Assembly: GCF_003334765.1 (NCBI RefSeq)
Contig: NZ_QOWT01000023.1
DNA: 64,000 nucleotides
Reading direction: 5' to 3' (one strand)
Source: Escherichia coli
GTDB lineage: Bacteria > Pseudomonadota > Gammaproteobacteria > Enterobacterales > Enterobacteriaceae
Part shown: one piece after another, positions 58,826 to 62,917 of the stretch
Layout of the letters: each line of letters starts with the position of its first letter
How positions within the stretch are numbered: position 1 is the stretch's first letter
The notes under the pieces: generated by a model
What the model was told of the DNA's origin: nothing
The model's database searches: none
Seen by the model: the letters and a program-made list of their open reading frames with translations, nothing else
Program-made: the position numbers and the translations under genes

Positions 58826-61800
58826 ATGAATAAAATATACGCGCTTAAATATAGCTCCCTTACTGGTGGGCTTATAGCTGTGTCAGAATTAAGTAAGAAG
58901 GTCACAGGAAAAACCGGCAGAAGATTAATGACGGTTTCCCTGGTATTATCAGTGACTCTTTCTGCTTTACCGGGTAAAGCATCAACGGTCAGCGCAGAAA
59001 TACCATATCAGACTTTTCGTGACTTTGCTGAAAATAAAGGTGTGTTTACCCCCGGAGTGACAGGAATTGAAATAAACGACAACAATGGAAATAAAGTTGG
59101 GGTTCTTGATGTTCCCATGCTTGATTTTTCCAGTCTTTCTCGTGATGGTCATACCACATTGATTCATCCTGGTTATGTTGTATCGGCTAAACATAGTGGT
59201 TTACAAAGTGTTTCATCAGCAACTTTTGGTTATGACCAGATATATAAAATAGTTGATAATAATCTTGCTGGTATAGATTTTTCTGCCCCACGATTAAATA
59301 AGCTTGTTACAGAAGTAATTCCCGCAGATATACAGGGAAAGGATAAATTTAATAATAACCGTTATACGGCTTTTTACCGTGCGGGCGTTGGCTCTCAATA
59401 TATCCGTTATGCAAATGGCACAGATAAACTACTGCAGGCTTACACTCCAGACAAGGCTTATCTGACCGGCGGAACAGTGGGAAAACCTTATTATACTCAC
59501 TATAACGGTATGAAGATGATTTCAGCAAACCCGGGAAATACCTTTGATAAAAACCAGGGACCTCTTGCCAGTTATGGACAGATTGGAGACAGTGGTTCGC
59601 CGTTATATGCCTGGGATAACATTGACAAAAAATGGGTATTAACTGGAGTTACTCTGCATAATTATGGAGTAAAAGGTGCACGAAATGACTGGCTCCTGAT
59701 ACCTCATGACTTTATCAGTCAAAAATTACAGGATGACCTTAAACCAATTATTGTTGCTTCTCCGGAGGAGAATATCTTACGCTGGGAATTTGATCGTTCC
59801 AGAGGTACAGGTACTCTCAGTCAGGGAGAGAAGATTTTTTCCATGACTGGTAGTGTAAACGGAAATGCAAATACCGGGAACAATCTTGTGTTCTCAGGTA
59901 ATGAAGGGAAAATCGAACTGGTATCCAGTGTGGAGCAGGGAGCCGGATATCTTCAGTTTGATAAAGACTACACTGTACTGACAAATAATAACAGTACATG
60001 GACTGGTGCCGGAATTATTGTCGGTGACGAGGCAAATGTCAAATGGGGAGTTAATGGCATTGCCGGTGATTATCTGCATAAAGTTGGTTCCGGGACATTA
60101 ACTGTTAATGGTCATGGTGAGAATAAAGGTGGCCTTAAAGTTGGGGACGGCGTTGTTGTTCTTGAGCAACAGCCAGATGCAAACCAGAAACAACAGGCGT
60201 TTAGCCATATCAATATAGCCAGTGGTCGGGCAACAGTTAAACTTAACGGGGCAAACCAGGTAGATGCAGATAATATCAGTTGGGGATATCGGGGTGGGAA
60301 ACTGGATTTAAATGGGTATGATTTTACCTTTTCCCGTCTTCAGGCTGCAGATTATGGTGCTGAAATCAGCAACGATAATCAGACAGATAAATCCATAGTC
60401 ACACTTTCGTTATCTCCTCTGAAAGCAGAAGAAATAAATGTGGTTGTTAATAATATAAATATAATGGGGGGGGCAGGCAAACCAGGTGATCTGTATTATA
60501 CGACCTTTGACGGAAATTATTATCTGTTGAAAAGTAACCGATATGGCAGCGCTTTGTTTGGCGCGCTGAATAATCAGAGCGAATGGCAAAGGCTGGGTAA
60601 GAATAAAGAAAAAGCAATTGGGTTATATACACAGATGAAAATGCAGGAAAGCGATCTTTTATCATATATATATCATGGAAAAATAACCGGTAATACCAGT
60701 GTGGAAATACCCAAACTGGCAGGCAATGATATTTTAACGCTTGATGGCTCTGTCAGTATATCAGGAGATATGTCAAAACAGGACGGTGCTCTTATCTTCC
60801 AGGGACACCCGGTTATTCATGCAGGGCAAACTGTTTCTGCATCGCAGAGTGACTGGGAGAACAGGGAGTTCTCACTCAACAATCTGAATCTTAATAATGC
60901 GGACTTCAGTCTGTCCCGTAATGCATTTATGAACGGGAATATCAGGGCCGTTAACCAGAGCACTGTTATTATCGGCGGAGATACAGTCTTTACTGATAAA
61001 AATGACGGAACAGGTAATGATGTCATCAGTGTTGAAGGGAAATCTGCTGCCGCAGGAACATCCTCCTATACAGGGCATATCACTCTGGAGCAAAAATCAG
61101 CACTGGATATCCGCGATAATTTTCGTGGCGGGGTTACGTCTGAAGACAGTCATATCAATGTTTCTTCATCTTCAGTCTTGTTCTCAGATGCATCGTCATT
61201 TATAAACAGCTCCCTGAATATTCATAAAGGAGGTGCGCTGACCGCTCAGGGAGGGCTGTTTACAAGTGGAAGCATTGATATTGGTGACGCTTCCCTTCTG
61301 CTTACCGGTACACCAGTGAATTCAGATGATGCTGCTTTTTTACCGACCATCAATATGGCTGATGGCGGATTTAAACTGATGTCTGATTCATCAGTACTGA
61401 AAGCCAGAGACCAGGCATCTGTTGTTGGTGATATTATTTCTGATAAACAGGCCACAATCAGCTTCGGAACTGAATCAGGTAAAGAGGGCATATTGTCTGA
61501 GAAGGCATCCCGGGGACTCGCGGTAGGATTACTGAGTGGTTTTAATACGGCATACCGCGGTGCAATTCATGCCCCGTCAGCATCTGCCACTATGAACAAC
61601 ACCTGGTGGCAACTGACAGGAGACTCCTCACTTCGCTCGTTAAAAAATACCGGAAGCATGACATATTTTACAGGAAGTGCAGCGAATAAAGCATTCCATA
61701 CACTGACGGTTGATGAGCTGACGACGAATGGCACTGCGTATGCCATGCGTACGGACCTGAAAAATGCGGATAAGCTGGTAGTAAACCAAAAGCTGTCAGG

Positions 61801-62917
61801 TAAGGATAATATTCTGCTGGTTGATTTTCTGAACAAACCCACCGGAGAAAAACTGGATATTGAACTGGTGAGTGCACCGGGGAACAGCAGTAAGGATGTT
61901 TTTAAAGGAAGTGAACAGGCAATAGGTTTCAGCAATGTCACACCTGTTATTACAGCTATAGACGCCGGAGATAAAACAACATGGAACCTGACCGGGTACA
62001 GGATGGCAGAAAATCCTGCCGCAACCCAAAGTGCCTCAGGCCTTGCATCTGTGGGGTACAAATCATTTTTGAGTGAGGTCAACAACCTGAATAAACGTAT
62101 GGGTGACCTGCGTGACATCAATGGTGAAGCTGGCGCATGGGCACGTATCATGAGCGGAACCGGCTCTGCCGGTGGTGGTTTCAGTGACAACCACACACAT
62201 GTTCAGGTCGGTGTCGACAAAAAACATGAGCTGGACGGACTGGATTTGTTTACCGGCTTCACTGTCACACACACTGACAGCAGTGCCTCCGCCGATGCTT
62301 TCAAAGGTAAAACAAAATCTGTGGGGGCCGGACTCTATGCTTCCGCCATGTTTGATTCCGGTGCCTATATCGACCTGATTGGTAAGTATGTTCATCATGA
62401 TAATGAGTACACCGCAACCTTTGCCGGACTCGGAACCCGTAATTACAGTACGCATTCATGGTATGCCGGTGCTGAAGCAGGCTACCGCTGTCATGTCACT
62501 GAGGATACCTGGATTGAGCCACAGGCAGAACTGGTCTACGGTGCTGTATCCGGTAAACAGTTTGCATGGAAGGACCAGGGGATGCATCTGTCCATGAAGG
62601 ACAGGGACTACAATCCGCTGATTGGTCGTACCGGTGTGGATGTGGGTAAATCCTTCTCAGGTAAGGACTGGAAAGTGACAGCCCGTGCCGGTCTGGGCTA
62701 CCAGTTCGACCTGCTGGCTAACGGCGAAACCGTATTGCGGGACGCATCTGGTGAAAAACGCATCAAAGGTGAAAAGGACAGCCGTATGCTGATGTCCGTT
62801 GGCCTGAATGCAGAAATCAGGGATAACGTCCGCTTTGGACTGGAGTTTGAGAAATCCGCCTTTGGTAAGTACAACGTTGATAATGCTGTCAACGCTAACT
62901 TCCGTTACTCGTTCTGA
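58826..62917 (+). CDS. Serine protease autotransporter of Enterobacteriaceae (SPATE family); family member not determined
   Basis: 1363-aa ORF: extended autotransporter signal peptide (MNKIYALKYSSLTGGLIAVSELSKKV...), trypsin-like passenger with catalytic Ser motif GDSGSPL and His in VVSAKHSG, C-terminal beta-barrel ending ...NFRYSF. Confidence 0.85.
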   Translation: MNKIYALKYSSLTGGLIAVSELSKKVTGKTGRRLMTVSLVLSVTLSALPGKASTVSAEIPYQTFRDFAENKGVFTPGVTGIEINDNNGNKVGVLDVPMLDFSSLSRDGHTTLIHPGYVVSAKHSGLQSVSSATFGYDQIYKIVDNNLAGIDFSAPRLNKLVTEVIPADIQGKDKFNNNRYTAFYRAGVGSQYIRYANGTDKLLQAYTPDKAYLTGGTVGKPYYTHYNGMKMISANPGNTFDKNQGPLASYGQIGDSGSPLYAWDNIDKKWVLTGVTLHNYGVKGARNDWLLIPHDFISQKLQDDLKPIIVASPEENILRWEFDRSRGTGTLSQGEKIFSMTGSVNGNANTGNNLVFSGNEGKIELVSSVEQGAGYLQFDKDYTVLTNNNSTWTGAGIIVGDEANVKWGVNGIAGDYLHKVGSGTLTVNGHGENKGGLKVGDGVVVLEQQPDANQKQQAFSHINIASGRATVKLNGANQVDADNISWGYRGGKLDLNGYDFTFSRLQAADYGAEISNDNQTDKSIVTLSLSPLKAEEINVVVNNINIMGGAGKPGDLYYTTFDGNYYLLKSNRYGSALFGALNNQSEWQRLGKNKEKAIGLYTQMKMQESDLLSYIYHGKITGNTSVEIPKLAGNDILTLDGSVSISGDMSKQDGALIFQGHPVIHAGQTVSASQSDWENREFSLNNLNLNNADFSLSRNAFMNGNIRAVNQSTVIIGGDTVFTDKNDGTGNDVISVEGKSAAAGTSSYTGHITLEQKSALDIRDNFRGGVTSEDSHINVSSSSVLFSDASSFINSSLNIHKGGALTAQGGLFTSGSIDIGDASLLLTGTPVNSDDAAFLPTINMADGGFKLMSDSSVLKARDQASVVGDIISDKQATISFGTESGKEGILSEKASRGLAVGLLSGFNTAYRGAIHAPSASATMNNTWWQLTGDSSLRSLKNTGSMTYFTGSAANKAFHTLTVDELTTNGTAYAMRTDLKNADKLVVNQKLSGKDNILLVDFLNKPTGEKLDIELVSAPGNSSKDVFKGSEQAIGFSNVTPVITAIDAGDKTTWNLTGYRMAENPAATQSASGLASVGYKSFLSEVNNLNKRMGDLRDINGEAGAWARIMSGTGSAGGGFSDNHTHVQVGVDKKHELDGLDLFTGFTVTHTDSSASADAFKGKTKSVGAGLYASAMFDSGAYIDLIGKYVHHDNEYTATFAGLGTRNYSTHSWYAGAEAGYRCHVTEDTWIEPQAELVYGAVSGKQFAWKDQGMHLSMKDRDYNPLIGRTGVDVGKSFSGKDWKVTARAGLGYQFDLLANGETVLRDASGEKRIKGEKDSRMLMSVGLNAEIRDNVRFGLEFEKSAFGKYNVDNAVNANFRYSF

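Follow-up and report, generated by a model that had tools for sequence, protein, structure and literature searches.

An espI gene for a predicted class-2 serine protease autotransporter on an integrase-bearing island of Escherichia coli

EspI is a serine protease autotransporter of the Enterobacteriaceae (SPATE) that was found on a pathogenicity island in Escherichia coli that produce Shiga toxin (STEC) and are negative for the locus of enterocyte effacement; it cleaves pepsin A and apolipoprotein A-I but not IgA1, haemoglobin, casein, gelatin or many other proteins (PMC3153244). The same review groups EspI with the SPATEs acting on extracellular targets, records no toxicity to Vero cells and puts its identity to EspP and EpeA above 95% in the beta-domain and below 35% in the passenger (PMC3153244). 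Its specificity is elastase-like, with leucine at P1 (PMC4179157), and the purified protein, of about 110 kDa, is partly trapped by alpha1-protease inhibitor and alpha1-antichymotrypsin (PMC4210187). Secretion and serine protease activity have been demonstrated for the prototype (PMC4179157, PMC4210187), encoded by STEC O91:H- strain 4797/97 (CAC39286.1, AJ278144), and no role or target in vivo has been proven (PMC4179157). Here we describe a 64,000-nucleotide stretch of E. coli DNA from contig NZ_QOWT01000023.1 (hereafter the window), in which one open reading frame (ORF) is, judging from sequence comparison, almost certainly an intact allele of espI encoding the class-2 SPATE EspI.

Identity and class of the autotransporter

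The ORF list and translation reveal a single uninterrupted frame with an ATG start, 1363 amino acids and a terminal stop only, in exact agreement with the coordinates and length given for an intact SPATE in a preliminary description of this DNA. Comparison by megablast with 5426 complete E. coli genomes matched annotated espI genes at 100.0% identity, as printed in the output, across all 4092 bases (e.g. NZ_CP195498.1 and NZ_CP077477.1). The top matches were strains 20AR0300 and O111:H21 15A (7552 bits), followed by H3, HSP425, AF58 and NCTC9082. At least 99% identity was found in 109 records, with 99.9% in O55:H7 USDA5905 and 99.3% in O103:H2 12009 and many O111:H8, O121:H19 and O145 genomes. 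The product in 15A and AF58 is annotated by RefSeq as WP_001529929.1, ‘serine protease autotransporter EspI’; an exact-sequence look-up in a public protein collection found the window protein recorded as EspI on 132 contigs, and it sits in a 2356-member cluster at 90% identity whose listed members are nearly all named EspI.

Because an NCBIfam search of the protein returned the generic barrel model TIGR01414 only, and no EspI-specific model, the name is taken from what RefSeq annotates on identical DNA and from the record in the protein collection rather than from a hidden Markov model. It settles the identity left open by the preliminary description, which could not assign the protein to a named SPATE from sequence alone. 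The RefSeq and NCBI name of the identical sequence and a predicted passenger of about 110 kDa are shared with the prototype. EspI proteins of enteroaggregative E. coli (EAEC) are reported to be 99.05% identical to CAC39286.1 (bioRxiv 10.64898/2026.04.16.715897), and the 12-14 residue differences between the window allele and other EspI alleles are of the same order. The espI copy is real and well read, but it is already described and ordinary in kind; any strain with an intact espI could serve in work on the in vivo target.

The passenger aligns end to end with solved class-2 structures, namely SepA (5j44, 903 bits, residues 54-1088), Pic (859), EatA (842) and Hbp (697). The class-1 passengers, in contrast, match best in a stretch that begins only at residue 644-668 (EspP 481, Pet 405 and EspC 397 bits). 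The so-called domain 2 insert distinguishes class-2 SPATEs, the non-cytotoxic ‘immunomodulators’, from class-1 SPATEs, and residues 520-640, searched alone against solved structures, matched SepA, EatA and Pic and no others. Since the whole passenger is collinear with class-2 structures, the class-1 similarity starts so late and the 520-640 segment finds only SepA, EatA and Pic, the window protein is by alignment a class-2 SPATE whose nearest relative of solved structure is SepA. The class-1 versus class-2 check proposed at the outset is thereby answered, and the protein length, offered earlier as a weak clue to the SepA/EatA class, pointed in the right direction, the nearest solved relatives being SepA, Pic, EatA and Hbp.

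Likeness to SepA of Shigella flexneri, EatA and Pic extends from the full-length collinear passenger to the domain order with its class-2 insert, the catalytic triad and the asparagine-asparagine (NN) cleavage motif; these are nonetheless separate named proteins with other reported substrates. That the ORF might represent SepA or EatA, as orthologue or variant, has in its favour that SepA is the best solved-structure match and is itself 1363-1364 amino acids long. We consider this extremely improbable, because global identity to SepA is only 54-56% (sequences P0078 and P0036), compared with the 100.0% match to annotated EspI, and SepA-type proteins fall in separate 90%-identity clusters. EspP, a class-1 SPATE of enterohaemorrhagic E. 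coli (EHEC) plasmid pO157, shares with the EspI of the window a 277-residue beta-domain (about 599 bits) and the same self-cleavage residues, but its passenger is distant: the best stretch against structure 3sze starts at residue 644, and the passenger identity reported is low (PMC3153244).

Across the complete genomes, espI was present at 80% coverage or more in 116 of 5426. The hosts of the window allele include a blood-culture isolate, varied serotypes and varied human isolates, and carriage of espI by itself is not enough to define a pathotype. The type III effector NleA has also been called EspI, and it, rather than the SPATE, is reportedly the subject of the study by Mundy et al. That study, of espI distribution in EHEC and enteropathogenic E. 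coli isolates, is cited by PMC10562709 when discussing the SPATE EspI. Because of this clash of names, literature prevalence figures for ‘espI’ need care. Short-read espI calls can also err, 68 of 68 in one published data set having been judged incorrect (bioRxiv 10.64898/2026.04.16.715897). The earlier suggestion that the gene marks a pathotype-associated strain holds only loosely. EspI has been linked with less pathogenic STEC and with EAEC (PMC4179157; bioRxiv 10.64898/2026.04.16.715897); as a marker it is too strong a claim, since the allele occurs in varied human isolates.

Domain organization and predicted processing

Pfam was run on two overlapping pieces of the 1363-residue protein (Table 1). 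At the N-terminus, ESPR (PF13018) covers residues 1-48 (E 5.9e-5), and signal cleavage is predicted after residue 53 because it is with query residue 54 that the solved mature chains of SepA, EatA and Hbp begin to align, at residue 2 of their own numbering. The catalytic residues lie in VSAKH (His123), GIDFSAPRL (Asp151) and GDSGSP (Ser256), with GDSGS at residues 254-258. In HMMER alignments to the solved class-2 SPATEs Hbp, SepA, Pic and EatA, they stand opposite the KH, D(F/I)..RL and GDSGSP motifs, so that the triad holds on proper alignment. Further along the passenger, the PIC/HAP1 beta-solenoid region PF24078 spans residues 632-774, and the Pertactin and Autochaperone-1 (AC_1) matches span 934-1030.

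The self-cleavage site predicted between Asn1086 and Asn1087 is intact and lies in the conserved SPATE motif EVNNLNKRMGDLRD; the linker motif is unchanged in SepA sequences and EspI paralogues. At the C-terminus, the autotransporter beta-domain PF03797 occupies residues 1104-1341 and TIGR01414 residues 954-1363 (248.7 bits, cut-off 16). Residues 1087-1363 match the EspP beta-domain structures 2qom and 7ttc at about 599 bits, the solved 7ttc chain of 277 residues aligning end to end with the barrel of the window protein. EspP residues N1023, N1024, R1028, D1120, Y1150, E1154 and E1172, which we take from EspP work to be those relevant for self-cleavage, have identical counterparts at an offset of 63. 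The extended signal peptide, GDSGS serine and C-terminal barrel noted at first inspection are all, therefore, recovered by profile and motif. The precursor is predicted at 146.2 kDa, residues 54-1086 at 110.4 kDa and the barrel at 30.3 kDa, the passenger value agreeing with the approximately 110 kDa published for purified EspI (PMC4210187).

Table 1 Features of the espI locus, in window coordinates
Feature	Coordinates	Strand	Basis
espI coding sequence, 1363 codons and stop	58826..62917	+	ORF list, DNA match, exact protein match
Predicted extended signal peptide, residues 1-53	58826..58984	+	Pfam ESPR; cleavage position inferred
Peptidase_S6 domain (PF02395), residues 52-294	58979..59707	+	Pfam, E 9.7e-63
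Catalytic triad codons His123, Asp151, Ser256	59192-59194, 59276-59278, 59591-59593	+	Translation positions
Predicted secreted passenger, residues 54-1086; predicted beta-solenoid with class-2 insert (about 520-640) and autochaperone (934-1030)	58985..62083	+	Alignment to SepA 5j44, Pfam
Linker with self-cleavage motif EVNN/LNKRMGDLRD, residues 1084-1097	62075..62116	+	Motif read from translation
Beta-barrel translocator, residues 1087-1363 (277 residues)	62084..62914	+	EspP structure match, PF03797, TIGR01414
Region of 505 bp conserved upstream of espI, presumed to hold promoter and 5' leader	58321..58825	+	Near-identical to O103:H2 12009
Conserved 3' flank, 77 bp, with G+C-rich hairpin	62918..62994	+	Alignment with O103:H2 12009 and plasmid espI variant
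IS2-like element	57041..58320 (left boundary approximate)	-	Alignment to K-12 IS2A, NCBIfam
IS3-family transposase C-terminal fragment	63038..63181	-	NF033516, profile 332-369 of 369
IS66-family transposase C-terminal fragments, two	63234-63602 and 63633-63821	-	NF033517, profile 296-385 and 348-385 of 387

The steps from the inner membrane to release that we propose are drawn from the family, and the protease step from published work on the prototype. The 146-kDa precursor would cross the inner membrane through Sec by means of its extended signal peptide, and the C-terminal 277 residues would be folded by the beta-barrel assembly machinery (BAM) complex into a 12-stranded barrel in the outer membrane. 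The passenger would then be threaded outward, folding from the autochaperone into a beta-solenoid that carries the chymotrypsin-like S6 protease domain at its N-terminus. By cutting its own linker between Asn1086 and Asn1087, the barrel would set free the passenger of about 110 kDa. Once free, the protease would be expected to act in elastase-like fashion with leucine at P1, cutting pepsin A and apolipoprotein A-I, with alpha1-protease inhibitor and alpha1-antichymotrypsin cut incompletely.

Allelic variation, expression and a mosaic plasmid relative

Four other members of the EspI cluster differ from the window protein at 2 to 19 residues, with recurrent differences at S124G, D209E, I253S, T273A, Y416N, A550T, N593D, D610A, L611P, I1045K and N1206D. 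Codons 124 (59195-59197) and 253 (59582-59584) encode serine and isoleucine in the window and glycine and serine in three of the four other members; P0127, from E. albertii, has the window's residues at both. Both positions are variable in the set of SepA, Pic, EatA and Hbp too, so that an effect of Ser124 and Ile253 on activity is no more than a possibility. It could be that these two residues, together with some ten further changes, shift the substrate range relative to the O91:H- EspI, and that carriage between clpA and serW marks a distinct, human-associated cassette lineage; to this combined proposal we accord only a slim chance. What novelty remains lies in the allele differences near the active site and in the mosaic relation with an unnamed plasmid SPATE.

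Several considerations weigh against reading the ORF as an espI allele that encodes EspI. The name rests on annotated copies and not on alignment to the prototype CAC39286.1 of strain 4797/97, and the published biochemistry comes entirely from the O91:H- allele. Between the window allele and others such as P0125 and P0129 there are 12-14 residue differences, with S124G adjoining the catalytic His123 and I253S lying three residues before the catalytic Ser256. Expression and secretion in the source strain are predicted only. The IS2-like insertion 505 bp upstream could alter espI transcription, and a promoter scan of the upstream region found sigma-70-like matches no more frequent than in shuffled sequence; one such match (TGGACA-18-TAAAAT, 10/12) lies at 58713-58742, and an 11-bp inverted repeat at 58749-58773.

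One alternative is that the ORF is intact yet silent or non-functional here, an insertion sequence (IS)-scrambled remnant kept by chance. The degenerate IS copies all around the gene, the nearby insertion, the lack of a convincing promoter in the scan and the unproven role of EspI in vivo (PMC4179157) are compatible with it. Against it, maintained function is suggested by a 4.1-kb ORF free of stops, by catalytic and processing residues that are all intact and by a 505-bp upstream region the same as in O103:H2 12009; the identical allele occurs on 132 contigs. We therefore hold a silent remnant to be unlikely and favour an intact espI allele encoding EspI.

A plasmid protein annotated as ‘S6 family peptidase’ (WP_071594104.1; P0002/P0003 type; L008 7001-11092) is encoded by a 4092-nucleotide gene that neighbours katP on an IncF plasmid of pig origin; 3618 member sequences make up the P0003 cluster, and we found no published name for this type. 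The window protein could be conceived as this unnamed paralogue rather than EspI proper, given that the two genes are equal in length and that, in 50-residue windows, the proteins are 100% identical over residues of about 651-900, 98% on to 1000 and 92-100% in the barrel. Over the N-terminal 650 residues the picture differs: identity across residues 100-650, which include the protease domain, is 32-62% per window, and the two whole proteins are only 76% identical, whereas the window protein is identical over its full length to chromosomal EspI. Equating it with the plasmid paralogue is thus hardly credible, and the assignment to EspI stands. The sharp switch in identity near residue 650 looks, in the alignment, like recombination between SPATE genes.

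Two names were considered for the P0003 relative and rejected. Sha has 1302 residues, is without the NN site and resembles Tsh most closely (PMC6592367); for EpeA, a published passenger identity below 35% rules the name out (PMC3153244).

The espI cassette and its chromosomal island

Homology upstream of espI with O103:H2 12009 begins exactly at the end of the IS2-like element, and the unit common to both genomes runs from 58321 to about 62994, comprising the gene together with 505 bp before it and 77 bp after it. The G+C content of the gene is 44.6%, against 49.7% for the window, with 42.8% in the passenger part and 51.3% in the barrel part. Just past the stop codon, a hairpin can be read from the sequence at about 62931-62950 (AAAGGGCC-TGAG-GGCCCTTT); a terminator scan, performing no better than on shuffled sequence, did not flag it. 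Up to ‘...GGGGTATCAG’, the 3' flank is identical in O103:H2 12009 and near-identical in a plasmid espI variant (94.5% gene identity), which has the downstream part in common but none of the 505-bp upstream region. We propose that espI would travel as a cassette of about 4.7 kb (58321-62994) bordered by IS debris.

For the IS2-like element on the left, column identity to K-12 IS2A averages about 94% across the whole alignment. The element's repressor TnpA matches over 121 of 121 residues (275 bits, cut-off 229), and its transposase TnpB over residues 1-265 of 301 (609 bits, cut-off 597), the match stopping there because a 1-bp insertion shifts the frame. The espI-proximal end is intact at 58320, and at about 57040 the terminus of a divergent IS1 variant takes the place of the distal inverted repeat; since a search for inverted repeats at the IS2 ends found none, the boundaries were set by alignment to IS2A. 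RefSeq annotates the AF58 and 15A counterparts of this degenerate copy as an intact IS3-family transposase with programmed frameshift. On the right, RefSeq annotation of identical DNA likewise gives a partial IS3 family transposase and IS66 fragments, so the flanking arrangement first proposed, with IS2 to the left and IS3 and IS66 fragments to the right, is confirmed by profile and by annotation; the profile analysis also places the first IS66 fragment at 63237-63581. Beyond the IS66 fragments, 15A and AF58 have an ISEc45 transposase gene of the IS110 family; at an equal offset its start here would fall near 63882, and the window end would truncate it.

espI belongs to an island that carries an integrase gene and has inserted in the interval from clpA to serW, the serW side being known from genomes with the same island. 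In the window, clpS-clpA (clpA ends at 41505) stands directly to the left of an integrase gene (42023-43240, 405 amino acids), followed by genes for DUF3987 and helix-turn-helix proteins, an orphan ORF of 620 amino acids, YagK/YfjJ, a PrimPol-helicase, the IS cluster and espI. The island backbone occupies 42023-51588. The PrimPol-helicase (812 amino acids, 475.8 bits against the PADLOC PrimPol model) is named by RefSeq ‘TOTE conflict system archaeo-eukaryotic primase domain-containing protein’, and the orphan ORF (45272-47134) had no NCBIfam or PADLOC match. Isolate AF58 matches window positions 39001-64000 over their full length at 98.3%. Its island goes on to carry iha, an AIDA-like gene that is truncated and a module resembling CP4-57 (antirestriction, YeeU/CbtA), and ends at a tRNA-Ser gene (L003 14925-15012) adjoining infA, about 49 kb from clpA. 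ARAGORN found no tRNA gene anywhere in the 64,000-nucleotide window; with the tRNA-Ser at the far end in AF58, the integrase would lie at the island end away from the intact tRNA. The surrounding DNA can therefore be flagged as an espI-bearing integrative island of the clpA-serW interval.

Other genomes place espI differently. In 15A the same 12-kb IS-espI block belongs to another island, which also has malX, agaR and an enterotoxin gene; in O103:H2 12009 the neighbours of espI are ure genes and a PrimPol backbone of the same kind. These differing settings, together with AF58 and the plasmid variant, suggest a small cassette moving among several islands and plasmids. iha follows espI at about 6 kb in 15A and about 13 kb in AF58; the window stops 1083 bp after espI. 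This espI-iha linkage, seen in islands related to that of the window, would recall the prototype EspI on the locus of proteolysis activity (LPA) island, which in its original description was reportedly sited at selC. The clpA-serW site here is not selC, the window is free of tRNA genes and the AF58 island ends at the tRNA-Ser by infA; we accordingly reject an LPA island in the strict sense and regard the element as a probable espI-iha island at another chromosomal site.

Further to the left of the IS2-like element lie an IS1 (from 56314), an IS200 (55035-55493), part of a group II intron, an IS3 in degenerate form and pieces of IS66. The intron fragment is a D1-D4 match of 171 nucleotides (55732-55902, 113 bits), with no adjoining reverse transcriptase in the ORF list. 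Matches to STnc100 (54682-54896) and STnc490 (54903-55026) stand directly upstream of the IS200 tnpA.

An Rfam scan for a tRNA at the clpA-integrase junction returned only a lone clustered regularly interspaced short palindromic repeat (CRISPR), a CRISPR-DR4 match (RF01317) at 41718-41745 (+) with 50.1 bits against a gathering threshold of 35 (E 3e-9) and no array around it. Some E. coli carry a type I-F CRISPR locus between clpA and infA, and the single repeat is probably a relic of such a locus.

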